From positions 141,181 through 205,180 of IMG/VR virus record IMGVR_UViG_3300037466_003648: a stretch of 64,000 nucleotides of DNA; one strand, given 5' to 3'. Each line of letters begins with the position of its first letter. Position 1 is the first letter of the stretch. This DNA comes from a virus (Duplodnaviria; Caudoviricetes). Below are positions 1-64,000 of this stretch, piece after piece. Under the pieces are notes generated by a model. The model did not search any database. It was not told the DNA's origin and saw nothing but the letters and a program-made list of their open reading frames with translations. A program made the position numbers and the translations under genes.

Positions 1-3000
1 TGCCCCCGTTGCGTGCGAACAGCCCCGCCCCGGCGTAGGCACCCAGAGGCGCAAAGCCGTAGGTCGTGGCGAGACCGACACCAATCATTCCAGCACCCAA
101 GCGGACCGAAGCTTCCCAGTTGGTGTTGGGCTCGTAGCCGAAGCTCATGCCGAAGCGCACGGCATTCGCCGTCCAGCCGTCCTCGCCGCCGGTCGCGTCG
201 ATGAGGGCACGCAGGGCGCCGTCCATCGGGATCTCTTCTTCGTTCTTGTGGTCTCGGTACCAATCCCGGAAGCCCTTGCGACCGCGCAGATCGGAGTAGT
301 AGTACGGGAGCTTGACACTGCCGTGGATGCCCGACGGCATGCCCAGCATCGCCGTCAGCATGAAGGTGGTCTTGCCACCCTCGACGACGGCGCCGCCCCA
401 GACCGAGCCCAGGGGCAGGTAACCAATACGCATACCGTACGCCAGCGACAGCGAGACCTGTGCCTTGTCGGCCTGACCCGCCCATTGCTGCGCCATGTCG
501 AGCGTCGCCCGGATGGCACCCAGTTCTGCCTGGTCACGAGGACCGGCGCCAGCTGCCACCAGCTTTTCCATGCGCCCCAACGACATGCGCTCCGTCTCGT
601 TGACCATCATCGTGGTCGCCATGGTCTTGGTGACGACCTTGTACATGAGGTCTTCACGACTGGCCATGAACGACATGGTCATGTCGCGCTGCATCGCGGT
701 CAGGCGATCGACAAAGTACCCGGCGATGCCAGACGCCGACCAGTCTCGCAGACCCGCACGCTCCACCTCGCGGTAGGGGTTGTAGCCCCGCAGGTCGCTC
801 GCCACCGAGACCATCTTGGTCGCGCGCTGGGCAGCCCCCAATGGGTTGAAGGGGTTCATCGACATCCCGGCAACGAACTGGGCACCCCAACTCAAGCCGG
901 TGCTCAGCCCCACCGCGAGCGCGGGCATGATGTCCAGGATACCCGCCAACCCGCTGCGCGGTGCCAGGTCGGCCCAGCCAAAGTTGGTGACCGTCCCCGC
1001 CGCCCCGTGCAGCGTGTTCTCGCGGTCGATCTGGGTCTCCAGGGTCTCGCGCTTGGCAGACGCCAGCATGCCATAAGCGTGGGTCGCCACCGCGCCGACA
1101 AACAGTGCCTGGACGCCACGACGGGCCAAGGCACGTCCGGGAGTCAGGCCGGTCTCGCCGTAGAGGTGTCCATAGGAACGCGCGAATTGACCTTGTGCGT
1201 GGGCATCACGCCACAGCTCTTGGGCGCGCGACCAGTCGCCCCGCAGCGCCGCACCCCACCCCGCGCGGCGTGTCGCGCGCATCCCCGCGATGTGAGGGTT
1301 TGGTGCCAGGTTGAGCACGTCGGCGACGAGCCCGCCACCCGGCAGCTCGCGAATGAAGCGATTGGCAACTTGGTTGACCGCCCGAAAACGCTCGTGCAGC
1401 GTCATGCGCTTGGCGTCGTGCTCGATCTCGTAGATCGTGTGAACATGCCCGCTAGGCAGCGTCACCGTCTTGACGTTGATCTTGCCGCCGCGCTGACGAC
1501 GCAGGTCGAGCGCGAGTTGGCGGTCGGTGACCTGGACCTTCTTGAGCGACGACTTGTGGTCGTACACGCCCATGACATCGTCGATGAACTTGCGGCCAAC
1601 GTCCCCCGCTACCGCCCCGTAGGCTTCGCGCTGGACGCCCCACAAACCCTTGGAGATGCCCGCGTGCACGTCCATCGCGTACTCGCCCGCCTGACCAGCC
1701 GCCACCGTCGCGTCACGCACGAACGCCGACACCGGGCCATGCACGGGCGCGTTCAGCACCCGATCCCCGATGGTACGACTGATCCGCCCCATCCCGGAAG
1801 CCGCCCGCGCACCGATCTCGGCCATGAACATGGTCGACCGGATCAAGCCGATGTTCATTCCCAGGTTGAAGAGCGTGTCGTCTACCCAACGAGCGCCATC
1901 GGCATAGGTGCCCTCCGCCTTCGCGTCGATCGGACGGTAGTCGGCAGAGCCGTAAACCCGCAGCTGCTCGTCTTGATGGTTCCGACGATCGATCTGGGCG
2001 CCCAGGTTGACCAGCAGCGAGCCCAACGGCCCGCGGTTACCGCGTGCCTCGGTCAGCTCGCTCGCCGTGGCCGCCCAGCCACTGCCGAAGCGCTGGTTGA
2101 CGTAGTCCGTGATCTGACCGCGCCACAGCTCGCCGAAGGTGGGCAGCATTGCCTCGCGGTCGCTTCGCGTGATGACGTCCGGCATGGACGACGGCAACTG
2201 CCCCTCGTGTCCACCTGCGTACATCTCGGTGTAGAGGTGGCGATAGAAGCGCCCGGCCGAACGCATCGGGTTGACGAACGATCCCTGCTCGTGCGTGGCC
2301 GCTGCCCACGCGTACGCCTTGCGCGTGTCGGCATCGAAGATGACCTGGGGGTCCACGACGTACTGCCACGCCTTGCGTTGGCCGCCCAGCGAGATGCCGT
2401 GCAGGGGCATCATCGACGGCATGAAGGTGCCCAACTTCGTGAACGGCATGCGCAACTGCTCGCCCGCACCGAAGTCGAAGTTGGACTGAACCTGACGAGC
2501 GATGTCGGCTGCCACACGGGCATCGCGGGCGTGCAGCATCACTTCGGTGGAGCGCTCGCCGTTGTAGCCTTCCACCGCGGTCTTGGAGAAGCGCATGGAG
2601 CCCACCATGTAGGTGTCACCCATGGCGATGACGTTGGCGTGCCACGGGCGGTTGCCCCAACCCACATGCAGGTTGGTCAGCGTGCGTCCTGCCGCCGTTA
2701 GCTTCTGGAACGCACGACCCTCGTTATTGATGTCTTGCTGGTTCAGACCACCCAAGCCCACGTAGACCTGATCGCCGCGGCGCGCCTTCTGGATGATCGA
2801 GTCCAGGACGTGCGGATCGGAGAGCGTGGCCGACGCGATGTACAACGCTGCGTGGTTACCCCGATCCCCGATGATGCGGCTCAGCACGTCCAGCGCGGTG
2901 CCCGTGTCCTTGGGACTGGCGACCAGCAGATTCTGGGTCGAGACCGGCGCACGACCAGCAGCGATCGCGCCCAGCACCGTGTCCATCTGGCGGACGAGGT

Positions 3001-3442
3001 TGGCATCGCGGGTTGCCACGAAGTAGTTGAACTGGGTCTTGTCCTGGCCGGAGAAGCGGCTGTACTCCGGCAGCGTCGCCATGCCCAAACCCGTCTTGGT
3101 CATGTTGGCGGTGCCAACGAACATCACACGATCGCCGGTCGGGCTCGTGAACTCGCCGACCTTGGCGTGCAGACGCGAGCCGAAGGTCTTGCGATCGGCT
3201 TCGATCAGGTTCGTGTGACCCTTCAGGGTCTCGTAGGCTTGGGGGTTGGACCACTTCGCGGTGGTGCGCTCCGAACCCACGATGCGACCGCCGCCGGACA
3301 GAACCGAACGCGTGAGCCGGTTGTCCTCCACCTCGTAAGTGGTCATGACCGAACGCGACGACATACCGAGCAGGCTCAGTCGAGCCTGCTCGTCATCCCG
3401 GCCAAACCAGGTAGGCGAGGTGCGATCGTCGAAGGTGGGCAT
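1..3442 (-). CDS. Giant protein (>1147 aa, runs off window) with N-terminal tandem phospholipase D/nuclease-like domains; candidate tape measure or ejected virion protein
   Basis: ATG at 3442, 4 nt after the terminase stop (MPTFDDRTSPTWFG...). I found no in-frame stop down to base 1; the + strand ORFs 248..2701 and 2735..3817 are its antisense shadows. Motifs RLHAKVGEF..VMFVGTANMT (3104-3169) and PWHANVIAMGDTYMVGSMRFS (~2585-2645); Gly/Ala-rich hydrophobic segments further on. Confidence 0.8.
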   Translation of the reverse strand, partial: MPTFDDRTSPTWFGRDDEQARLSLLGMSSRSVMTTYEVEDNRLTRSVLSGGGRIVGSERTTAKWSNPQAYETLKGHTNLIEADRKTFGSRLHAKVGEFTSPTGDRVMFVGTANMTKTGLGMATLPEYSRFSGQDKTQFNYFVATRDANLVRQMDTVLGAIAAGRAPVSTQNLLVASPKDTGTALDVLSRIIGDRGNHAALYIASATLSDPHVLDSIIQKARRGDQVYVGLGGLNQQDINNEGRAFQKLTAAGRTLTNLHVGWGNRPWHANVIAMGDTYMVGSMRFSKTAVEGYNGERSTEVMLHARDARVAADIARQVQSNFDFGAGEQLRMPFTKLGTFMPSMMPLHGISLGGQRKAWQYVVDPQVIFDADTRKAYAWAAATHEQGSFVNPMRSAGRFYRHLYTEMYAGGHEGQLPSSMPDVITRSDREAMLPTFGELWRGQITDYVNQRFGSGWAATASELTEARGNRGPLGSLLVNLGAQIDRRNHQDEQLRVYGSADYRPIDAKAEGTYADGARWVDDTLFNLGMNIGLIRSTMFMAEIGARAASGMGRISRTIGDRVLNAPVHGPVSAFVRDATVAAGQAGEYAMDVHAGISKGLWGVQREAYGAVAGDVGRKFIDDVMGVYDHKSSLKKVQVTDRQLALDLRRQRGGKINVKTVTLPSGHVHTIYEIEHDAKRMTLHERFRAVNQVANRFIRELPGGGLVADVLNLAPNPHIAGMRATRRAGWGAALRGDWSRAQELWRDAHAQGQFARSYGHLYGETGLTPGRALARRGVQALFVGAVATHAYGMLASAKRETLETQIDRENTLHGAAGTVTNFGWADLAPRSGLAGILDIMPALAVGLSTGLSWGAQFVAGMSMNPFNPLGAAQRATKMVSVASDLRGYNPYREVERAGLRDWSASGIAGYFVDRLTAMQRDMTMSFMASREDLMYKVVTKTMATTMMVNETERMSLGRMEKLVAAGAGPRDQAELGAIRATLDMAQQWAGQADKAQVSLSLAYGMRIGYLPLGSVWGGAVVEGGKTTFMLTAMLGMPSGIHGSVKLPYYYSDLRGRKGFRDWYRDHKNEEEIPMDGALRALIDATGGEDGWTANAVRFGMSFGYEPNTNWEASVRLGAGMIGVGLATTYGFAPLGAYAGAGLFARNGG

Positions 3443-3445
3443 GCG

Positions 3446-5425
3446 TTACCAGTCGGCTTGGGTCACCGACGTCTTCCGCCCCATGGTCCGAATCGTCGCC
3501 CCTGCATTTCTGGGCGCGTTGTTGATCAACCGTTGATTGCTGCGTGCGGCCATGGCACGACCCTCATCGAAGATGTCGGAGATGACGCCCGCCGCACGCA
3601 CCTTGCCGACCGTGCGCATCTTGTCCGAACCCACTTCGAAGCTGCGGTACTTGCGCTCGTCCTGGGCGATCTTGTAGATGACGCAGGCCAGGCAGTCGGA
3701 CAAGTCCTTCGAGCCGCGGGGCTTCGGGTGATCGATGCGACGACCGTTCATCAGCTTCAGCTCGATCAACTCCTTGTGCAGCTGGGCAGCGGCGGGCGAC
3801 ACGCTCGGGTCCGGTAGCTGGATGCGCTCGGCGTAGAGCCAGTCGCGCAAGGTCAGGTAAATGTCGCGCTGGACCTGCTGACTAAAGCTCGACTTCCACT
3901 CGCGGGTATTCACGCCCTTCGAGTACAGGCGTTGGATGATCATGGCACTCTGCCAGTGGTCGAAGGTCATGTCCCGCAGGGTGATGTAGGGAGCCAGCTC
4001 CAGGATGATCTCTTCCACGTTCATGAAGTCCGTGGGGTAGATGTTCTTGCGGCCCTTGTCGAGCGGCTGCCACTTCAGGATGGTGTGCACGTCCGCGTGC
4101 ACCAACCCCGTGGCTGCGTCGTAGAAAGGCGAGGCGGCCACGAAACCGAAGCTGTCCTTCTTCAGACCGGGGTCTCCGTGCGCGTAGCTTTGGAAGCCGA
4201 TCGGAACGCTGATCGCATCGCGGTCGACGTGGATCTTAATGCCTGCCTTGATCTGCACGCCATCGGGTCCGACCACCTGCGTCTCGATGGCCTCGTAGCC
4301 GACCGGCAGACTCATGCGCGTCGTGACCTTCTGGACCAGCGGCTTCTGGAAGTAGGACTCCTCCGAACCGGGGCGGACGCCTGCGTAGTCGCGCTGCGCC
4401 TCGATGCCGCGTGCAGCGAACTCTTTGCGCATGAAGGGGTGCTCTTCGCCCAGCTTCGCGAACTCCGGGTTGATGTCCCAGGTGCAGAGGCGGAACGCCA
4501 GGATGTTGGCGCCCTCCTCGGTCTCTGCCATCTCGTACATCGTGTCCGTGATGTCGCCTTCCGCCCAGGCGGAGGAGATGACGATGCGCTTGGAGCCGAA
4601 CTTCTGGAGGGTGGTGACACCCTTGCCGACGTTGGCGTACATCTCCGCGCCCGACGCACCGCCTTGGGCTTCGACACCAAAGCGGTTGCCCTCGTCCATC
4701 GCGAAGATCATCAGGGTACGGCCGACCAGACCCTCGGAACGGCTGTGACCGGCCCAGAGCAGGAGGTTCTTGCTTTCGCAGTAGATCTCCAGCGCGTTGA
4801 CCTGGATGACGCCGGTGGCCATGAGACCCTGGAAGTAGGGGCTGTGCTCGATACGACCCTTGACGGCGGCGAACAGCGTGTCCTTGGACTGCTTCTCGGA
4901 GGTTGCCAACACGAGGAAGGCAATCAGGGATCCCGCCATCAAACCGAACGACGCGGCAGGGTCCTTGAGCTGCAGGAGCTTGTAGAACTCGAAGGTCACC
5001 ATGATGGAGGTCAGCGAGGTCTTGGAGCCGCGCATCCCGCACTCCAAACACAGCTCTTGGTACTCCTGGCCTTCGACCCAGGTGGTCTTGTTGTCCAGTG
5101 ACCACTGCTGGAGGATCTCGCGCTCGTCCCACGGATCGTCCGGGTGCATGTCGTAACGGGAGCACCAGCTGAAGATCTCTTCCTCGCGCTCGGCGCTCGT
5201 CCGGCCCGTGAGGTTGATGCACAGGTCGCGCCAGAGCCCCTTCTCCAGCGGCAGGTTGTACAGCGCCTTGAGGATGGCACGCTGGGTCGGCCACAGACGG
5301 ACGCCCAGGATCTCTGTAGCGAACTGGACAACGTCCATCGTTGTCTGGTCCTGCTGCATACCTTCTGCCACGATCTCGTGGATGAAGCTCTGTGCCTTGA
5401 GCAGTGGCTTGTTGATCTTACTCAT
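3446..5425 (-). CDS. terL: Terminase large subunit
   Basis: Walker A-like LECGMRGSKTS, Walker B IFAMDEG, RNase H-like nuclease motifs AHGDPGLKKDSFG and HPKPRGSKDLSDCLA; 659 aa. Confidence 0.92.
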   Translation of the reverse strand: MSKINKPLLKAQSFIHEIVAEGMQQDQTTMDVVQFATEILGVRLWPTQRAILKALYNLPLEKGLWRDLCINLTGRTSAEREEEIFSWCSRYDMHPDDPWDEREILQQWSLDNKTTWVEGQEYQELCLECGMRGSKTSLTSIMVTFEFYKLLQLKDPAASFGLMAGSLIAFLVLATSEKQSKDTLFAAVKGRIEHSPYFQGLMATGVIQVNALEIYCESKNLLLWAGHSRSEGLVGRTLMIFAMDEGNRFGVEAQGGASGAEMYANVGKGVTTLQKFGSKRIVISSAWAEGDITDTMYEMAETEEGANILAFRLCTWDINPEFAKLGEEHPFMRKEFAARGIEAQRDYAGVRPGSEESYFQKPLVQKVTTRMSLPVGYEAIETQVVGPDGVQIKAGIKIHVDRDAISVPIGFQSYAHGDPGLKKDSFGFVAASPFYDAATGLVHADVHTILKWQPLDKGRKNIYPTDFMNVEEIILELAPYITLRDMTFDHWQSAMIIQRLYSKGVNTREWKSSFSQQVQRDIYLTLRDWLYAERIQLPDPSVSPAAAQLHKELIELKLMNGRRIDHPKPRGSKDLSDCLACVIYKIAQDERKYRSFEVGSDKMRTVGKVRAAGVISDIFDEGRAMAARSNQRLINNAPRNAGATIRTMGRKTSVTQADW

Positions 5426-5633
5426 GGGACTTGCCCTCCGGGGACGCCTCGGGCAGCGCGTAGCTCATGATGGCGTCGAGGGGAACCTTGATCCATACGC
5501 TCTCCGCATCGGAAGCCATCACCGTCACAGGTACCAGCTCCTGAACGAAGCGCAGCCCCACCGCGTTCGGCTCGTCTTGCACCACCTTGAACAGGCGGCG
5601 CATGAGGTCGAACGCGAGGGGAATGCGAGCCAT
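5418..5633 (-). CDS. Hypothetical protein (71 aa)
   Basis: Fills the gap between amidase and terminase and overlaps the terL start by 8 nt. Confidence 0.6.
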   Translation of the reverse strand: MARIPLAFDLMRRLFKVVQDEPNAVGLRFVQELVPVTVMASDAESVWIKVPLDAIMSYALPEASPEGKSHE

Positions 5634-5637
5634 GGTC

Positions 5638-6405
5638 TTAGCCCTTGATGATGTCGAGCATCATGAACTTCTCGTGACCGGCCTTGAGCGCGTCGTAGAT
5701 GCGCAGCAGCTCGGTCATGATGCCGTTCATGTTCCCGGTACCCACATCCACACGGAATCGGCCGTAGCCGTCCTGCTGGGCGTAGCTGGCGTGGTCGCTA
5801 ACGACCTTCATCTGGATCATCTTGCCGGTCTTCCAGATGCTGTTGGCATTCGGCTGGTCGCAAGCCATCTGGTCGATCGTCTCCGTCGCGCGGGGGTCGA
5901 TTCGGTGCCAGGCGCAGTACTCCGCGGCCAGGCGGGCACCCACCATAAGCTGCGCCTTGGTGACCGGCTGGCCGGAGGCCATTGCCATGAACGAGATGCC
6001 GATCGAGCCCGTGTTGCGCGCCCAGAGGTGCTTGCCCTTCTGGTTGCCCTTGAGGAAGCGCACGGCGTACGCCTGACCGGTCTTCGCGTCGTACACCACG
6101 CCGAACTGGTAACCGTCCCAGCACTGGTTGTAGTTGCCCGCGCTCCAGTGGAAAATGATGCGCTTGGACGTACCGGGATCGCCGTCCTTCTGGTCGTTCT
6201 CGTAGCAGAGCTGCAGCGTGAGCGTGTTGCTCAACTTCACGGACGTGTGCCGTGCCGCGTAGTGACCGGTCAGGTCGTAGGCGATCGGTTGGGTGGTCGT
6301 CGGATGCACGACCGGCGCGAGCAACAGACCGGGTGCCTCGCACTCGGTCACCTCGTACCAGGTCGGGTGCTCCAGCTTCAGTTGGGTGAGGTTCTTGTCA
6401 GCCAC
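5638..6405 (-). CDS. N-acetylmuramoyl-L-alanine amidase (Amidase_2-type endolysin)
   Basis: RIIFHWSAG, YQFGV, HLWARNTGSIGISF and distal SDH motifs typical of Zn amidases; GTG start with AGGA RBS. Confidence 0.85.
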   Translation of the reverse strand: MADKNLTQLKLEHPTWYEVTECEAPGLLLAPVVHPTTTQPIAYDLTGHYAARHTSVKLSNTLTLQLCYENDQKDGDPGTSKRIIFHWSAGNYNQCWDGYQFGVVYDAKTGQAYAVRFLKGNQKGKHLWARNTGSIGISFMAMASGQPVTKAQLMVGARLAAEYCAWHRIDPRATETIDQMACDQPNANSIWKTGKMIQMKVVSDHASYAQQDGYGRFRVDVGTGNMNGIMTELLRIYDALKAGHEKFMMLDIIKG

Positions 6406-6418
6406 GGGGTCCTGCTTT

Positions 6419-6853
6419 CTAGAGTTGGGTCGGGTCGATCACCGCGACCATCACCACGCGAGGTGGCTTGAGGAGGGAGTCGTACCCAATGTAGAAGATG
6501 TCACCGTGCGAGCGCTGGAGCATGAAGGCCATGTCCAACAGGGCACGGCCAAAGCGCATCGTGCGGGTGTGGGGTGTGTTCAGGTCGTCGGTGGGATTCG
6601 AGACGTCCACCACCACCCGATGGGATTCGGTAAAGGTCTCGTCATACACAACATACCCTTGCTGATCCACTTCTGGCAGATCGATCAAGTAGACGAAGGG
6701 TTCTACGACCTTGACGGCATCCGCGTGCGTCAGGATCAACATCAGCTTGTGGTCACCCAACGTGTCCAGTCCCTGGAAACCGCCGGGCGCGGAAGCGGCT
6801 AAGGTCTTCAGGGCGTCGCGGACTTGGGGATCGAGCAGAACGAGCGAGTTCAT
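6419..6853 (-). CDS. Hypothetical protein (144 aa)
   Basis: Tightly packed minus-strand ORF with typical codon usage; no recognisable motif. Confidence 0.7.
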   Translation of the reverse strand: MNSLVLLDPQVRDALKTLAASAPGGFQGLDTLGDHKLMLILTHADAVKVVEPFVYLIDLPEVDQQGYVVYDETFTESHRVVVDVSNPTDDLNTPHTRTMRFGRALLDMAFMLQRSHGDIFYIGYDSLLKPPRVVMVAVIDPTQL

Positions 6854-6858
6854 GGCGG

Positions 6859-8613
6859 CTACCTGTTGTTGTCGGCACGCAGCTGGTTCAGCTTCGTGTA
6901 CAGCGGCTTGAGGCGCTCACGCAGCCCGGATGCCTGGGCAATCGCAGCAGCCTTGACGGTCTCGTCCATCGACGTTGCACCGATGCTGTTGTTGTACTGG
7001 CTGATCGCCGTGTCGGCAGCATCGATGGCAGAGGATGCGGCACCAATGGCTGCCGTACCCGCAGCTTGCAGCTTGGGATCTCCCTTGGTCAGGTCCACCG
7101 TATTCAGCTGCCGTTGGCCCGCCGTGGCCGCGTAAGCAGCAACAGCCGTGGCCGCCTTGGCAACCTTGCCCTCGGCCGCGGTCACCAGTTGGGCGGCCGA
7201 CTCGAAGTTCTTGCCGTTGGGTGTTGCCGTGCGAGTGCGCGGGGCCGGGTCGGTGATCTTGCCACCGCCGCCCAGCACCTGGTTGCTGGCACCGCCCGCG
7301 GGGATCTTGGTGTCCTGCTTGGCCTGCAGGGTCTCCTTGGTCGCGCGCTGCACCAGGGTCGTGTCCGCATCCGAACCACCCTCGATGCCGCCCACGGCAA
7401 AGCACTGGAACTTGTAGTAGGTACGGGCATCGTCGCGGTACCAGCGGGTGTAGTTGGTCACGATGACCTGGTACTTGATGCGCACCACGCCGCTGAAGAT
7501 CTCGAAGTCGACCGCCGTGCCGCCCTTTACCGCGTTGTCGAGGAACACCCGCGACACCTGCCACGAGCCGCCCTTCTTCTCCGGGTCCGTGTAGAGCGGG
7601 TCGGGGTTGTAGGGATCGTGGTAGCCGACCTTGTGCAGATCTTGGTTCAACAGACGCGCCTGGTCCCAACCCAAGAACGCTCCCACGAACTCGATCATCA
7701 AACCCTGGATGCCCAAGGACTGGTAGACAGGCGCACCGCCGGGAATGAGCAGCGTCGCGTAGTTCTGGACGTGCACGAAACGGATGCCCGCCTCGGCACC
7801 GGGTGCTTGCTGACCCTGTACCCCACCGTGGATGGGCAGGATCGAGTTGGTGGCAGGGGGCAGCTCGAACGGCACGTTCGCGAGCTTGACCTCCATGTGA
7901 CCTGCGTGACCCACGTTGACCTGGTGCGTGGGTGGCGTGCGCGTGAAGGTAGGCGGCGTGTCGTCCGGCCAGTAGTACTCGACCAGCTGCGGCTGGGGTG
8001 GCCGGTAGCCGAAGTTGAGACCGTACTGCTTGGCGAGCAGCCCCAGCGCCGCACCGGCCAGGTTGGGCAACAGGACGCCTGTGATCGCGTCGGCCGCCAC
8101 ACCCCCGAAATTGCCTTGCAAGATGTCGGCCAGGATCGTGTCGCGCGTCGAGGGCGACATGTTCGAGAGCACCGCCCCGACGGCCGGAATGTGCTGACCG
8201 AACGTGTCGAGCACACTGTCCATGACCTGGACGCCCGTGCCCGGCCACGAGAGCGTGGAGATCACCGCACCGGGGTTTTGGGCGACCGTGTCGATCGCGT
8301 CGATGCCCTTCTGATACAGCTCGCCGACGATGCCCTGCACGCCGCTGTCACCACTGGCGGGCAGGAGTCCCGTCTGGTAGAGCATACCGTCAAGGTAGGT
8401 CTGGCCGTCGAGGTAGTTGTTACCGGTACCCGCCTTCGCCTGTCGGATGCGATGGGCGACGTCCGGGGGCATCTCGTTGTTGTTGACCGAGGCCAGCAGG
8501 GTATCCCCAAGCGTTGGATCCCCGGAGAGTTGGTTGACGCCCAGAACTGTTGGCTGCTTCGTAACAGAAGCAGCCAGGTTCGCGAACTCGGCAGTCAGGA
8601 ACTCCAGCCCCAT
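6859..8613 (-). CDS. Putative virion protein with Mu gpN/P2 gpU-like (tube-initiator-type) domain
   Basis: Central YATLLIPGGAPVYQSLGIQGLMIEFVGAFLGWD resembles the DNA-circularisation-N/gpU pattern; helical Ala-rich C-terminus; RBS GGAG. Family call is by eye. Confidence 0.45.
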   Translation of the reverse strand: MGLEFLTAEFANLAASVTKQPTVLGVNQLSGDPTLGDTLLASVNNNEMPPDVAHRIRQAKAGTGNNYLDGQTYLDGMLYQTGLLPASGDSGVQGIVGELYQKGIDAIDTVAQNPGAVISTLSWPGTGVQVMDSVLDTFGQHIPAVGAVLSNMSPSTRDTILADILQGNFGGVAADAITGVLLPNLAGAALGLLAKQYGLNFGYRPPQPQLVEYYWPDDTPPTFTRTPPTHQVNVGHAGHMEVKLANVPFELPPATNSILPIHGGVQGQQAPGAEAGIRFVHVQNYATLLIPGGAPVYQSLGIQGLMIEFVGAFLGWDQARLLNQDLHKVGYHDPYNPDPLYTDPEKKGGSWQVSRVFLDNAVKGGTAVDFEIFSGVVRIKYQVIVTNYTRWYRDDARTYYKFQCFAVGGIEGGSDADTTLVQRATKETLQAKQDTKIPAGGASNQVLGGGGKITDPAPRTRTATPNGKNFESAAQLVTAAEGKVAKAATAVAAYAATAGQRQLNTVDLTKGDPKLQAAGTAAIGAASSAIDAADTAISQYNNSIGATSMDETVKAAAIAQASGLRERLKPLYTKLNQLRADNNR

Positions 8614-8622
8614 GGGCGTCTC

Positions 8623-9084
8623 CTACTTCGTGCGGCTTACCGCGGGCGGATCGGCCGGGGGTGCTGCCTTCTGCGGCGACCAGTTCATGATGAGCGTGAG
8701 GGTCAACCCCAGTGCCGACAACCCAACGGTGATCAGGGTCACGTAGGTCGCCGTCGTGTTGGAGTGCATGCTCTTCAGCAGCTCCAGGTGGTTGTGGTTG
8801 GTCTCGGCAATGGCCTCTTGAGCGGCATTCACCGCGGTTCCCAGCAGCGCCATCTGCTGCTGGGTCGCATCCAGACGAGCTTGGATCTCGTGCCGCGGCA
8901 CGAAGCTCTGAGGCAGTGCCTTCAACTCGTTCAAGGTCGCACGAATCTCGTCGAGCTTCGAGTTCAACACGGCCAGTTGCTGGTTGTTCTGACTGGTCTG
9001 CGAGGCCGTTTCTGCCAGGCGCTTGTCCAGCTCCTGCAGCTTCTGCTCCAGCAAACCAATTCGCTGCTCCAACACTTCGGACAT
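8623..9084 (-). CDS. Coiled-coil protein with C-terminal transmembrane helix (XhlA-like lysis accessory)
   Basis: Heptad-rich N-terminal 110 aa followed by YVTLITVGLSALGLTLTLIM. Confidence 0.55.
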   Translation of the reverse strand: MSEVLEQRIGLLEQKLQELDKRLAETASQTSQNNQQLAVLNSKLDEIRATLNELKALPQSFVPRHEIQARLDATQQQMALLGTAVNAAQEAIAETNHNHLELLKSMHSNTTATYVTLITVGLSALGLTLTLIMNWSPQKAAPPADPPAVSRTK

Positions 9085-9094
9085 GGGCTTCTCC

Positions 9095-9421
9095 TTACGG
9101 CCGCAAGCTATCGAGAACCAACACGCTGAAAAGCCCCGTAGACTGGGACTTCCCGTTCTGGAAGGTCACGACAACCTCCCCGGAGTAGGTACCAACAGTG
9201 TTGGTGTCGCCGTTCTGCCAGGCATACTCGGCCTTGCCGTCTTCGGCATCGGTCACGGTGCAGGCGCGATGGTCGATCAGGAGGTTCGTGGAGTCGGTGC
9301 CCATCGAGAACGTGATGGACGAGACGTCTGTCAGGTCGACACAACTTCCATCTCGCTTCTTGAGATGGAACTGCAGGATCGGGAGCAAGTCCTTCTTGTA
9401 GATGGAAAATTCGATGGCCAT
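9095..9421 (-). CDS. BppU N-terminal-like Ig-fold virion protein
   Basis: ILQFHLKKRDGSCVDLTDV...DAEDGKAEYAWQNGDTNTVGTYSGEVVVTFQNGK pattern. Confidence 0.65.
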   Translation of the reverse strand: MAIEFSIYKKDLLPILQFHLKKRDGSCVDLTDVSSITFSMGTDSTNLLIDHRACTVTDAEDGKAEYAWQNGDTNTVGTYSGEVVVTFQNGKSQSTGLFSVLVLDSLRP

Positions 9422-9422
9422 G

Positions 9423-9554
9423 CTAGTCCCCCAGCACCAAGGTCAACACGACGGACGGCGTCATCACCAGTGCCAAGGGGGCACTGTCGATCACCAGACC
9501 GAGGGTCTGATCGTTCTCGATGATCAGCACGAGCGAAGTCGTAGGATCGGTCAT
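9423..9554 (-). CDS. Small hydrophobic protein (43 aa, MTDPTTSLVLIIENDQTLGLVIDSAPLALVMTPSVVLTLVLGD)
   Basis: ATG at 9554 with GAGGAG RBS; stop lies 1 nt from the next start. The ORF-track start (9617) is too far upstream. Confidence 0.6.
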   Translation of the reverse strand: MTDPTTSLVLIIENDQTLGLVIDSAPLALVMTPSVVLTLVLGD

Positions 9555-9599
9555 CGGCGTGGGGCTCCTCCACGAGCATGGTGGAGTGAAACTGCGTCT

Positions 9600-9641
9600 A
9601 ACTTCTGGGCGACGCAACCGAAGCTGCGTCGCCCAGAAGTT
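9600..9641. repeat. Perfect 17-bp inverted repeat (hairpin), no U-tract
   Basis: AACTTCTGGGCGACGCA (9600-9616), 8-nt loop, TGCGTCGCCCAGAAGTT (9625-9641); intergenic. Confidence 0.9.
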
Positions 9642-9677
9642 GGAGTGAGGAGGAGAGGGAAGGAATGGAGCGGAAAA

Positions 9678-9962
9678 CTAGGCACGCGCCTTGTCGAGGA
9701 CCGTGGTGATCAGCTTCTCGGCCAGCGCCTCGATGTTGGCCGCCACGCCGTGCAGCATGGCGTCGTTCTCCAGGAGCAGCTTGGCGTACGTGGGGATCTG
9801 GGGGATCGCTTCGATGGCCGCCTTGGCATCCTTGACGATGGTTTCGACAGCAGCCGCTGCATCGGCCGTGGCTTCAGCGGCGTTCAGCTTGCGTTCGACC
9901 GCGGCTTCCAGGATCGACGCGATGACCTGCTCCGCGTCCTGCAACAATTCGTTGGGGGTCAT
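9678..9962 (-). CDS. Hypothetical amphipathic helical protein (94 aa)
   Basis: RBS AAAGGAG upstream of ATG; Ala-rich helical sequence. Confidence 0.7.
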   Translation of the reverse strand: MTPNELLQDAEQVIASILEAAVERKLNAAEATADAAAAVETIVKDAKAAIEAIPQIPTYAKLLLENDAMLHGVAANIEALAEKLITTVLDKARA

Positions 9963-62419: not shown

Positions 62420-62616
62420 CCAATCCGCTCTGCAAGTTTTGTGGTCGGGCGTTCGTCCCCAACGAGTTCCGCAAGGACGTCTGTGACGGGATGCTCTGCT
62501 TGGAGAAGATGGTCGACGAGTACGAGACCGAGCAGAACCGCTTGAACGACGAAGCCTGGGCAGCGTACGAGGCTAGTAAGGGACTCCAAGAACAACAGAT
62601 GGGACCCACCGCCTAA
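62416..62616 (+). CDS. Zinc-finger microprotein (66 aa)
   Basis: GTG overlapping the upstream TGA; LCKFCGRAF...VCDGMLC plus an acidic helix. Confidence 0.65.
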   Translation: MTNPLCKFCGRAFVPNEFRKDVCDGMLCLEKMVDEYETEQNRLNDEAWAAYEASKGLQEQQMGPTA

Positions 62617-62635
62617 GCGATGGGTCCCTTTTCTT
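62601..62635 (+). terminator. Rho-independent terminator
   Basis: GGGACCCA/TGGGTCCC stem with inner CGC/GCG pairs, followed by TTTTCTT, at the end of the rightward operon. Confidence 0.8.
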
Positions 62636-63001
62636 ATACGGCGTCGCGCCCTGTGAGCAGCACAAGGACCCAGCAGCATGGTGTGGTTCCTGCTGGGTCC
62701 CTGTACGCATCCCCAAGCCCACCGTCCGCGGTAGGACTCTACCTTTGTTGTACCACAAGAGTAGGTGGAAGTACACCTACTTTGGTTTCAAAAGTATGCA
62801 TGGTTGTACGAGCCAAGGCGGGGCCTCTGGCCCCACCCCCCTACCCCCTTAGGTCGCGCGAAACACGACCTGGGTACGGTGGGGCCTCTGGCGATCGCCG
62901 TACTACCCGGCGTAACCAGACTACAACCCCTTGCGATCGCCGTTGCCTGACCGCCGTGGTACAGGCTTGCCGATCGCCTGCCGAGAGGAGCGTTACACAC
63001 C

Positions 63002-63322
63002 ATGAACGACACCATCAACACGCACGACAAGGTCACCGCTGCTGCCGAGGCTTGGCTCGACCGCTACTTCGCTGGCGATCGCCCTGTCTACGTCACCGAC
63101 CAGCTGCTCGCTGGCTTCCGGTGGATGTTCATCGAGCAGCTCCGCGGCTCCTACACCTGCCGGGAGGCGCACGACGAGGTCTACGGCGCGGACGAGTTGG
63201 AGCTGGGTGCAAGCCCGAAGGGCTTCAAGCTCTACCTCTACGAGCTGGCTGACGCCATCGAGGCTGCACGCGCAGCGAAGCGCTTGGCGATCGCCCTCCG
63301 CGAGGAGGAAGCCCAGGGCTAG
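63002..63322 (+). CDS. Hypothetical protein (106 aa)
   Basis: RBS GAGGAG, ATG start, genome-typical codons. Confidence 0.75.
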   Translation: MNDTINTHDKVTAAAEAWLDRYFAGDRPVYVTDQLLAGFRWMFIEQLRGSYTCREAHDEVYGADELELGASPKGFKLYLYELADAIEAARAAKRLAIALREEEAQG

Positions 63323-63330
63323 CGATCGCC

Positions 63331-63384
63331 GGTGCGTGGGTGCCCTGTTCTTGCCCTTGGCAAGAAGACGCCCACCCACGCACC
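63331..63384. repeat. Long compound hairpin (12-bp + 8-bp stems)
   Basis: GGTGCGTGGGTG (63331-63342)/CACCCACGCACC (63373-63384) enclosing TTCTTGCC-CTT-GGCAAGAA. Confidence 0.9.
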
Positions 63385-63684
63385 CCACACCGCGCAGCTG
63401 GCCTGCCCGGCTACCGCCGGATGGTTGGCGATCGCCTCGAACGGCGAACCAAGGAGCCGCCATTCGGCGGACCGGAACAAGGCCGGGGCTCACGCCCCTA
63501 AGACCCCACGATTGCCAGTCTACTGCGAACACGCAAGCACGCCGTGCACGCAAGGCTGGCGCGCTTCGCGCATTACATGGGTGTGCTTGCACGCCCGCAG
63601 TTCACCCAAGCAATCCTCGTTGATTGCATGGGACGCCGCTGACGCGGCTAAGGGTCGCGTCACCTAGCCGAAAGGACCACACCG

Positions 63685-64000
63685 ATGACCACTACCGCTA
63701 CCAAGCCGCTTCGCCCCTTCCAGATCGCCCTCGTCGAGGCCAAGGCGCTCGCGATGGCGACCGGCAAGGTCCACACCGTCACCGCCGACAAGGTCGGCCG
63801 CGCGATCGCCGCGCCTGCCGCCAAGGTCAAGATGGCCCGCGAGCAGCGCGAGCTGGAAGGCAACACCGCGGATGACCGCGCGGAGAACAACTGGACCGAG
63901 AACGACTCCGTCGGCCTGTCCTACCAAGTGGAGGGTGACCTGGACGCCCAGCTCGATCGCGACGCCAAGGCGTTCGCTGGCTGGTACGTCGAGCAGCACA
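63685..64000 (+). CDS. Hypothetical protein, partial (>105 aa, runs off window)
   Basis: Not in the ORF track; RBS AAAGGA, ATG 63685, MTTTATKPLRPFQIALVEAKALAMATGKVH..., open to the window end. Confidence 0.75.
   Translation, partial: MTTTATKPLRPFQIALVEAKALAMATGKVHTVTADKVGRAIAAPAAKVKMAREQRELEGNTADDRAENNWTENDSVGLSYQVEGDLDAQLDRDAKAFAGWYVEQH

Follow-up and report, generated by a model that had tools for sequence, protein, structure and literature searches.

Concentration of the cyanobacterial palindrome HIP1 in one gene block of a soil-derived phage genome

Why would a phage carry, in one short part of its genome, dense copies of a palindrome typical of cyanobacterial chromosomes? Highly Iterated Palindrome 1 (HIP1) has been known since the 1990s, and we know of no protein that binds it, cyanobacteria included. 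The word, GCGATCGC, is found on cyanobacterial chromosomes (Elhai 2015, PMC4390886; Xu, Lawrence and Durand 2018, PMC5861425), being hyper-abundant in most cyanobacteria and apparently kept by selection, without an established function or reader (PMC5861425, PMC4390886). According to the account given in PMC5861425, published gel-shift assays do not support a role as a transcription-factor site.

Extent of the HIP1 island

The window (the whole stretch of DNA analysed, 64 kb) is the last part of a 205-kb phage record, which is a circular assembly; the source samples were soil and rhizosphere. The ends of the record have an exact 127-bp terminal overlap, which we read as an assembly circle. In the window, GCGATCGC occurred nine times, with seven copies within 62891-63809 and the other two at 2961 and 10353. 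All seven clustered copies had C as the next base, and four of them read GGCGATCGCC. In addition, one-mismatch copies were located at 62970-62977 (CCGATCGC) and 63953-63960 (TCGATCGC), and 24 GCGATCG 7-mers were present in window positions 1-62800. The cluster described in the initial annotation is real, and its counts of copies, clustered copies, decamers and 7-mers were all right.

A check past position 64000, which the same annotation had proposed, revealed that the cluster does go on, with 13 further GCGATCGC sites at genome positions 574-9888. It crosses the record junction, and the seven sites seen in the window are the left edge of a larger island. Scanning the genome placed the best interval at 204071..9888, with a log-likelihood ratio of 38.2 (maximum over 300 random placements, 13.1); the whole island thus comprises genome 204071..205053 plus 1..9888 (10,871 bp) and holds 20 of the 32 GCGATCGC sites of the genome. 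Under a third-order Markov model 2.6 sites were expected there, corresponding to an 8-fold enrichment, and the density was 29 times that of the remaining genome. The other 194 kb contained 12 sites, against 13.1 (third-order) or 14.7 (maximal-order) expected. Genome-wide 8-mer counts therefore confirmed the enrichment and placed the rest of the genome at expectation, so that the claim of under-use or avoidance elsewhere was not upheld; the two copies in window 1-62800, against 4.8 expected, gave P ~0.14.

Compared with the remaining genome, GCGATCGC(C) was the top enriched 8-/9-mer of the island (P ~1e-22 to 1e-27), and the decamer GGCGATCGCC made up 11 of the 20 copies. There was no enrichment of GATC itself (7.5 per kb within the island vs 8.0 per kb elsewhere) or of the one-off variants of GCGATCGC (20 vs ~15), and near-sites were not depleted. 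Counted from the island head, successive 2-kb intervals held 9, 3, 3, 2, 2 and 1 sites.

The slightly higher G+C content of the island (66% vs 62.6%), and the fact that GCG-ATC-GCC is a natural spelling of Ala-Ile-Ala in GC-rich genomes, would fit an ordinary origin in which the island is a recent host patch, a mis-assembly or a product of GC-rich codon usage. However, the stretch was present whole in four samples, and a 61-kb sister-strain contig from another sample crossed the record junction uninterrupted. For a strain 0.8% divergent, ~0.8 hits are expected, too few changes to gauge the conservation of the sites.

Layout of the unit and constraint on the word

The features of the region are as follows, in window coordinates unless a genome position is given.

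62601..62635, + strand: intrinsic terminator, an 8+3 bp hairpin followed by TTTTCTT, which closes the upstream small-gene unit
62760..62781, no strand assigned: operator-like 22-bp palindrome, AGTAGGTG-N6-CACCTACT, in an AT-richer patch
62891..64000, + strand: in-window part of the HIP1 island, delimited from GCGATCGC counts
62891..62977, + strand: first leader array, non-coding, with two copies of GCGATCGCCGT (62891, 62933) and the near-copy CCGATCGCC (62970)
63002..63322, + strand: first island gene, 106 aa, no family match, with the GAGAGGAG start motif 5' of the gene
63322..63435, + strand: second non-coding leader, with HIP1 at 63322 and 63428 and predicted pairing
63685..64000 (on to genome 561), + strand: start of a 249-aa gene, the ORF extending beyond the window end
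genome 3546-5510 and 5525-7039, + strand: RNA polymerase genes, locus L005

The island starts ~255 bp 3' of the terminator, a counterpart of which (hairpin plus T-tract) was found in the related lineage L013. Its head adjoins this terminator and a conserved operator-like block, and the density falls from the head along the gene block. The block TACACCTACTT and the flanks of the operator-like palindrome are conserved in L013, and the palindrome probably marks the control region, or promoter area, of the island transcription unit. The regulatory region directly upstream of the island thus combines operator-like palindromes with small genes, whose proteins are encoded at window 60.7-62.6 kb. Nothing upstream of the island matched the sigma-70 consensus, and its end lacked a clear + strand terminator. 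When intergenic k-mers were searched for a promoter motif of the phage polymerase, the only output was tRNA T-loops, ribosome-binding sites and C-rich repeats.

All island genes, including the two-subunit RNA polymerase pair, are on the + strand, and the GAGAGGAG translation start motif is specific to the island. The three first-leader copies (62891, 62933 and 62970) are direct repeats with spacings of 42 and 37 bp; the L013 base run aligned to 62891 reads GGCGCCCGC, and the site there therefore differs by point substitutions. Within the 106-aa gene, HIP1 copies were located at 63075 (frame 1, G-D-R-P) and 63287 (frame 0, A-I-A), and the copy at 63322 overlaps the stop codon. The homologous second leader of L013 also has two HIP1 copies, at positions that differ. 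In the 249-aa gene, HIP1 was found at 63802 (A-I-A), followed by the near-copy TCGATCGC at 63953.

HIP1 density in the island was ~5 per kb in non-coding DNA vs 1.45 per kb in coding DNA (~3-fold), with 14 of the 20 sites (~70%) in genes and 6-7 non-coding, and all 12 sites outside the island were coding. Reading frames 0 and 1 were both used by the genic copies, as Ala-Ile-Ala or x-Asp-Arg-x. Synonymous permutation of the island genes gave 4.8 +/- 1.8 sites vs the 14 observed, a number reached by none of 2000 shuffles; these shuffles and the non-coding excess together rule out codon usage. Ala-Ile-Ala was also 4.4 times enriched in the island proteins, where it was written GCGATCGCC in nine of 10 cases vs five of 39 elsewhere. 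The word works at the DNA or RNA level, and its concentration is probably functional. GCGATCGCC stood on the sense strand at 19 of the 20 island sites. Over 52 sites, C was present at +8 in 45 and G at -1 in 32, a flank bias that is reversed in the related lineage L027 (GGGGCGATCGCA).

The RNA of 63305-63450 was predicted to fold at -76.1 kcal/mol (z = -4.6), with a long hairpin inside a domain closed by 63322 and 63428. The copies at genome 574 and 590 were predicted to form a hairpin (-30.5 kcal/mol, z = -3.7) with 12-bp arms reaching past the palindromes and an ATG spanning the loop and 3' arm, and in L027 hairpins of HIP1 pairs were predicted 3' of a gene. Comparison of the leaders with Rfam gave no family match. 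That a DNA-level concentration of HIP1 coincides with structured non-coding leaders, as stated at the outset, was supported. The predicted hairpins, and the sense-strand reading of GCGATCGCC, would suit an RNA element in which self-complementary copies in the early transcript pair in a REP-like manner and shield or process the mRNA, or hide its start codons. However, any two nearby palindromes fold alike, so that the folds of HIP1 pairs carry no independent weight. Most sites stand singly within genes, hundreds of bases from one another; copies in the first leader and in L013 have direct rather than inverted extensions; the flank bias on the sense strand turns round in L027; and in cyanobacteria transcribed DNA is no richer in HIP1 than other DNA (PMC5861425). 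We consider an RNA element very unlikely as the explanation of the island.

Relatives, host and candidate readers of the word

HIP1 enrichment was detected in nine of 12 related soil-phage lineages, mostly at differing positions, with observed/expected values of 12/0.6, 9/0.6, 9/1.1, 6/0.3, 5/0.4, 3/0.7, 3/0.2, 2/0.1 and 3/0.7 and a G+C content of 55-66%; two lineages had no HIP1 site. Relatives have some positions in common; many others are specific to a lineage, and amino-acid changes to Ala-Ile-Ala accompany them. In the HIP1-bearing relatives (L026 omitted) 15 of 16 Ala-Ile-Ala in three conserved genes were spelled as HIP1. No HIP1 site lies upstream of the unit in L013. The island genes are phage genes, syntenic and conserved in the relatives, with no Pfam match apart from the RNA polymerase. 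All 12 lineages had only the RNA polymerase pair and a protein of 215-265 aa in common, and these families occur in HIP1-free lineages too. On the available contigs, which are short, no gene family separated HIP1-bearing from HIP1-free relatives; the HIP1-free relatives had no substitute iterated word, and the ~250-aa genes that HIP1 arrays flank in the various relatives were not orthologous.

Given the same enrichment in nine of 12 relatives, mostly at other positions, neither a patch taken from a host nor a codon artefact nor a compact switch of the pac/ori type accounts for the island. A patch from a HIP1-rich host, as had been suggested, is contradicted by the conserved phage genes, in which point substitutions and amino-acid replacements created the sites in place. 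An ordinary origin is also opposed by the common synteny and by recurrence of the enrichment over such a range of G+C, and we regard it as highly improbable; host patch, mis-assembly and codon usage were each considered and are refuted by the shuffles, the non-coding excess, the synteny and the multi-sample contigs.

Cultured phages gave no match to the island DNA or to the RNA polymerase subunit, at near-identity or at the protein level, and a search of IMG/VR for polymerase relatives, with a single protein and then with a profile, returned only this genome itself. The HIP1-rich viral genomes in IMG/VR were unrelated by capsid. Among 50,697 phage records, the capsid protein matched only Ma-LMM01-type Microcystis phages and a Microcoleus phage, at ~31% identity to these cyanophages, and the best portal matches and the lowest-E-value polymerase match were also to Ma-LMM01-type Microcystis phages or the Microcoleus phage. 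Since the head genes match cyanophages only, a tie to a HIP1-rich host appears plausible. A ribonucleotide reductase scan of a genome collection found only scattered archaeal and bacterial MAGs (27-38% identity), and in a protein atlas the capsid fell in generic capsid clusters only. The cultured cyanophage relatives had 1 and 0 HIP1 sites in 162 kb; HIP1 loading is therefore no general habit in phages of HIP1-rich hosts.

The initial annotation had also advised looking for a methyltransferase or binding protein. In the phage genome, no C5 methyltransferase (PF00145), Dam-type methyltransferase (PF02086) or ParB was found; the search did yield one N4/N6 methyltransferase (PF01555) at genome 110.5 kb, and no recognisable GATC- or CGATCG-type methyltransferase. 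Family searches with 38 proteins (Pfam 35, PHROGs 10) turned up neither a DNA-binding nor a HIP1-related candidate in the neighbourhood of the island, no conserved phage-encoded candidate reader adjoined the island among the 12 lineages, and no terminase was recognised with PF03237 or PF17289.

The reading that we prefer, tentatively and short of calling it probable, is that selection maintains the sites in an early operon dependent on the host, since this is where a HIP1-recognising activity of the host acts. The HIP1 sites would be cis-acting copies of the iterated palindrome of the host lineage, presumably HIP1-rich and cyanobacterial, kept by selection in one transcription unit. This unit would be an early operon, its early timing and the stepwise entry of the DNA being read from gene order only, and, since it encodes the phage's own RNA polymerase, it would run on host machinery alone. 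A chromosomal HIP1 reader of the host, methylation-linked or nucleoid-associated, may then act on the first-expressed, and possibly first-entering, DNA, which, up to the takeover by phage functions, would be protected, organised or transcribed in a chromosome-like way. The fall in density from the head would fit a signal that matters most at the start of the unit or of the DNA. It is more doubtful, though possible, that HIP1 is in general a functional word read by a host factor and that this phage clade writes it only in the host-run operon.

Alternatively, a dimeric phage protein may bind the ~20 palindromes and shut the operon, for example at an early-to-middle switch, the identity with HIP1 being a coincidence or coupling the binding to host methylation. 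Consistent with such an operator array are 1) the limitation of the enrichment to one transcription unit, with a peak at the head and in spacers, 2) the one-directional flank bias, 3) the direct-repeat arrays in leaders with a spacing of 15-55 bp, 4) enrichment of the exact word and not of its one-off variants, and 5) the operator-like palindromes and small genes immediately 5'. However, no DNA-binding family was detected among the proteins nearby and no ParB in the genome, no gene family splits HIP1-bearing from HIP1-free relatives on the available contigs, the flank bias turns round in L027, and ~70% of the sites lie deep within genes at the cost of amino-acid changes. Moreover, a chance match to a famous word among 256 8-mer palindromes, in a cyanophage-headed phage, is unlikely. 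On balance, an operator array seems rather unlikely.

The origin of sites in place by point substitutions and amino-acid replacement, as in cyanobacteria (PMC4390886), could also reflect a mutational drive of the host, in which methylation-linked biased mismatch repair (Elhai's model) makes and preserves HIP1. The island would be its target as the segment exposed to host enzymes or heteroduplex, for example an end that enters first or is terminally repeated; a gradient that runs from one end would suit a process with a fixed start, and a flank preference varying by lineage would be expected if hosts differ. On the other hand, the whole genome replicates in one cell, yet 194 kb are at expectation; the record is an assembly circle with the 61-kb sister-strain contig passing through its junction; near-sites are not depleted; and selection has been favoured over replenishment for HIP1 (PMC5861425). 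We judge such a drive unlikely, less so than an RNA element.

The initial annotation took the cluster as a candidate for an undescribed system, and no HIP1 island like this was found in the literature searched; a phage HIP1 island appears to have no earlier description there. As HIP1 is ubiquitous on chromosomes, its distribution there tells little of its function. The phage offers a contrast, the word being kept in one operon and at background in the other 95%, with an abrupt onset, a graded density and positions that turn over among relatives, which can make the purpose of HIP1 testable by what sets this operon apart from the remaining phage during infection. It also adds to the few cases of phages adopting a host chromosomal word. 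If the preferred reading, with a host reader, is true, HIP1 would for the first time have a context that is local, limited to one unit and directional, and the puzzle, now 30 years old, could be narrowed to early transcription and DNA entry or protection, not general nucleoid structure. If the sites are instead operators of a phage regulator, they would make up a dispersed-operator system of an unusual kind, in a phage that encodes a two-barrel RNA polymerase of its own.

Comparison with known systems

A compact GATC-gated switch of the P1 pac or oriC kind had been proposed for the cluster. The likeness lies in several GATC-containing sites close together, but the pac and oriC clusters are compact (~160-250 bp), non-coding and built on GATC, whereas the island spans 10.9 kb with its sites mostly genic (14 of 20) and GATC unenriched; the proposal was not supported.

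Stoperators of cluster A mycobacteriophages (L5 gp71 sites) are asymmetric and mostly intergenic; they and the KorB operator sites of IncP plasmids are bound by a known repressor that the element encodes. Like the island, both systems have many short sites across transcription units, also away from promoters. They have an orientation bias relative to transcription as well, which in the island takes the form of a partial flank bias, reversed in L027. In contrast to them, the core of the island word is a perfect palindrome, the copies are mostly genic and no binding protein was found.

The T7 early and T5 first-step-transfer regions, the first to be expressed or to enter in phages with a polymerase or takeover genes of their own, are known for lacking restriction sites. 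They resemble the island in being a short host-dependent block of small genes, here with a translation start motif of its own, whereas the island accumulates a palindrome and belongs to a phage known from assembled sequence. Chi is an asymmetric word read by RecBCD, and Chi-rich lambdoid phages likewise take up a host chromosomal word; the core of the island word is palindromic, however, and its flank asymmetry is inconsistent between lineages, in which it departs from Chi. The REP/BIME elements of enterobacteria are 35-40-nt imperfect palindromes, strictly extragenic and genome-wide. Similar to these, paired HIP1 copies form predicted GC-rich hairpins after stop codons within the operon (genome 571-600; L027 1244-1295).

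Cyanobacterial HIP1 is over-represented genome-wide on the chromosome, which this phage genome is not: here the word is concentrated in one 11-kb operon (5% of the genome), its enrichment is 8-fold vs the published 15- to 300-fold, its density falls along the unit and the phage has no recognisable GATC/CGATCG methyltransferase. In other respects the two agree. The 8-mer is identical and often extended to GGCGATCGCC, and it occurs in both coding and non-coding DNA, in the island beyond what codon usage gives. In both, the word is fitted in by codon choice and amino-acid change and originates by point substitution, and the trait is kept, in the phage across relatives, while positions turn over.

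Distribution of HIP1 sites in the window and the genome

Pattern search of the window yielded nine copies of the 8-mer GCGATCGC, the highly iterated palindrome (HIP1) of cyanobacterial chromosomes: seven at 62891-63809 and the others at 2961 and 10353. All counts of the initial annotation proved correct: each of the seven clustered copies was followed by C, four of them forming GGCGATCGCC, one-mismatch copies were present at 62970 and 63953, and GCGATCG occurred 24 times in window 1-62800, matching the claimed two dozen or so. The record (205,180 bp, the window being bases 141181-205180) begins and ends with the same 127 bases (window 63874-64000; genome 1-127 and 205054-205180), an exact overlap. 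This "direct terminal repeat" is more likely an artefact of circular assembly than a physical terminal repeat, its length being typical of an assembler k-mer, and the record was treated as an assembly circle of 205,053 unique bases. Because the record is read in this way and a 61-kb sister-strain contig obtained from a different sample crosses the junction without a break, the cluster continues past base 64000, with 13 further sites at genome 574-9888.

In a circular scan, the best window was 204071..9888 (10,871 bp), hereafter the island, which held 20 of the 32 genome sites (log-likelihood ratio 38.2, against a maximum of 13.1 in 300 random placements) where a third-order Markov model expected 2.6. 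Only 12 sites, all inside genes, were found in the remaining 194 kb, against 13.1 (third-order) or 14.7 (maximal-order) expected; therefore, HIP1 is not avoided elsewhere, as had been suggested initially, and the two sites in window 1-62800 did not differ significantly from the 4.8 expected. Biased repair by the host driving HIP1 formation, as in Elhai's model (PMC4390886), is improbable in our judgement, since, if the island is not some special end, it leaves unexplained why 194 kb replicated in that cell as well stay at expectation. GCGATCGC(C) ranked first among all 8- and 9-mers for island enrichment, the 24 one-letter variants of HIP1 stayed at background level (20 versus about 15), and no enrichment of GATC was detected in the island. 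Genome-wide, GATC was very frequent, with 1,635 sites (8 per kb), or 1.85 times the number expected from dinucleotides; therefore, neither phage nor host seems to select against it.

Organization of the island

Genes on the plus strand extend from about 202.5 kb, around the junction, to about 132.7 kb, and the structural genes are on the minus strand. All island genes are on the plus strand and, apart from the RNA polymerase pair, none had a family match. The features in and around the island are as follows (L005, the start-of-record locus, in genome coordinates; L013 to L029, metagenomic contigs of related phages).

Window 62601-62635: intrinsic terminator ending a small-gene unit, immediately left of the island; conserved in L013
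Window 62760-62781: AT-richer block with a 22-bp palindrome, after the terminator; conserved in L013
Window 62891: first HIP1 site of the island
Window 62983-62990 (genome 204163) and L005 773, 1313, 2532, 2714: GAGAGGAG start motif
L005:2733-3530: gene for a 215-265-aa protein, forming with the next two genes a trio also found in L013 to L029
L005:3546-5510 and 5525-7039, plus strand: two RNA polymerase subunit genes
About 11.6 kb: tRNA array, after the island

Counted from the island head, HIP1 sites per 2 kb numbered 9, 3, 3, 2, 2 and 1, with a density of about 5 per kb in non-coding versus 1.45 per kb in coding DNA. The motif GAGAGGAG, followed 7-11 nt on by ATG, precedes five island genes and occurs nowhere else in the 205 kb; its placement puts the start codons of two of them (788 and 1331) later than the longest ORFs suggest. 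The 215-265-aa protein, which lacks a family match, is encoded directly upstream of both polymerase subunit genes in 12 of 12 lineages and could be a third subunit or a specificity factor. In runs X5 and X7, sister strains carried 128 other letters in place of 8 bases between the polymerase genes (L005:5531-5540) and 99 in place of 57 bases at 10.0 kb (L005:10017-10075), and one of them had a 487-letter insertion (L005 about 611-665) just 3′ of the paired HIP1 copies at 574 and 590.

These two copies are predicted to form a hairpin with 12-bp arms reaching past the palindromes, and those at window 63322 and 63428 to close a folded domain; no Rfam family matched the leaders. The folds were given little weight because any two nearby palindromes fold so and the HIP1 extensions in other leaders are direct repeats. 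RNA hairpins may matter for paired copies but are irrelevant to the majority of sites, and it is very unlikely that they explain the island.

DNA-level constraint within genes and conservation in relatives

Within genes, HIP1 used only two of the three frames, frame 0 (GCG ATC GCC, giving Ala-Ile-Ala) and frame 1 (giving x-Asp-Arg-x), with frame 2 absent. Permutation of synonymous codons in each island gene gave 4.8 ± 1.8 sites versus 14 observed, a number reached in none of 2000 permutations. Ala-Ile-Ala occurred 10 times per 3,211 island residues versus 39 per 55,750 elsewhere, and was spelled GCGATCGCC in 9 of 10 cases versus 5 of 39.

Homologues of the RNA polymerase subunit numbered 18 in metagenomes (41-70% identity); none was found in cultured phages. 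Eleven relative contigs (G+C of the loci, 54-66%) were compared.

HIP1 sites in relative contigs, observed and expected (third-order Markov model)
Contig; observed; expected
L027 (in 5.8 kb); 12; 0.6
L013; 9; 0.6
L014; 9; 1.1
L020; 6; 0.3
L019; 5; 0.4
L018; 3; 0.7
L029; 3; 0.2
L028; 2; 0.1
L026; 3; 0.7
L015; 0; 0.8
L021; 0; 0.0

In L013 (17 kb), all nine sites fell within a 7-kb stretch beginning after the same control region as the island, the 4.8 kb upstream and the final 5.5 kb being free of sites, and leader site 62891 aligned with GGCGCCCGC. Alignment of the polymerase genes showed some sites shared by column and others where one lineage alone had changed residues to Ala-Ile-Ala; this tripeptide was spelled as HIP1 in 15 of 16 cases (three conserved genes of HIP1-bearing relatives, L026 left out). 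Flanking bases varied between lineages. Over 52 sites, C followed in 45 and G preceded in 32. The form in L027 was GGGGCGATCGC(A/T), with 9 of 12 sites in two intergenic arrays of 4-5 copies on both sides of one gene (L027:1-150 and 1235-1375); common to both arrays is a repeated module, about 50 nt long, with a small GC hairpin followed by TGTTACA and a pair of HIP1-like copies facing each other, which has the look of a regulatory or mobile unit that was duplicated. No substitute iterated word was found in the HIP1-free relatives. The constraint and relatives results combined exclude codon usage, a patch from a HIP1-rich host (proposed in the initial annotation) and mis-assembly, and show HIP1 loading to be a trait maintained while single sites turn over.

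Possible readers of the sites and comparison with other viruses

Among 50,697 phage records, the capsid protein matched only Ma-LMM01-type Microcystis phages and one Microcoleus phage (about 31% identity), which also gave the best portal matches and the lowest-E-value DNA polymerase match; those two cyanophages have one and zero HIP1 sites. Runs containing the phage DNA came from soil and rhizosphere. No C5 or Dam-type methyltransferase and no ParB was found in the phage, its sole recognizable DNA methyltransferase being of the N4/N6 type (PF01555; genome 110502-111257, locus L011:502-1257), with a Thermus putative modification methylase as nearest solved relative.

The facts to explain are the exact host-lineage word, its confinement to one unit, the peak at the unit head and in spacers, the costly insertion into proteins, turnover with maintenance across the clade and the lack of a recognizable phage reader. 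Tentatively, we favor that the operon, which must run before the phage's own RNA polymerase exists, would be read at these sites by a putative host HIP1-recognizing activity, and that selection keeps them. A dispersed operator array for an unrecognized phage regulator would account for the confinement equally well but leaves the identity with HIP1 as a coincidence, and we consider it rather unlikely.

Our literature search found no paper on HIP1 clusters in a phage. Previous studies of HIP1 have described selection, with no gene-level function found and a nucleoid hypothesis (PMC5861425), a methyltransferase link and the repair model (PMC4390886), and an analogy to Chi (PMC5101192). Other complete viral genomes in IMG/VR, capsid-unrelated to the present phage, carry HIP1 genome-wide: the record containing L090 (157 kb, 69% G+C) has 93 copies of GGCGATCGCC, only three in the first 37 kb and dense thereafter, and that containing L042 (134 kb, with inverted terminal repeats) has 40, evenly spread. 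The new element is therefore not the presence of HIP1 in a virus but its confinement to one operon.
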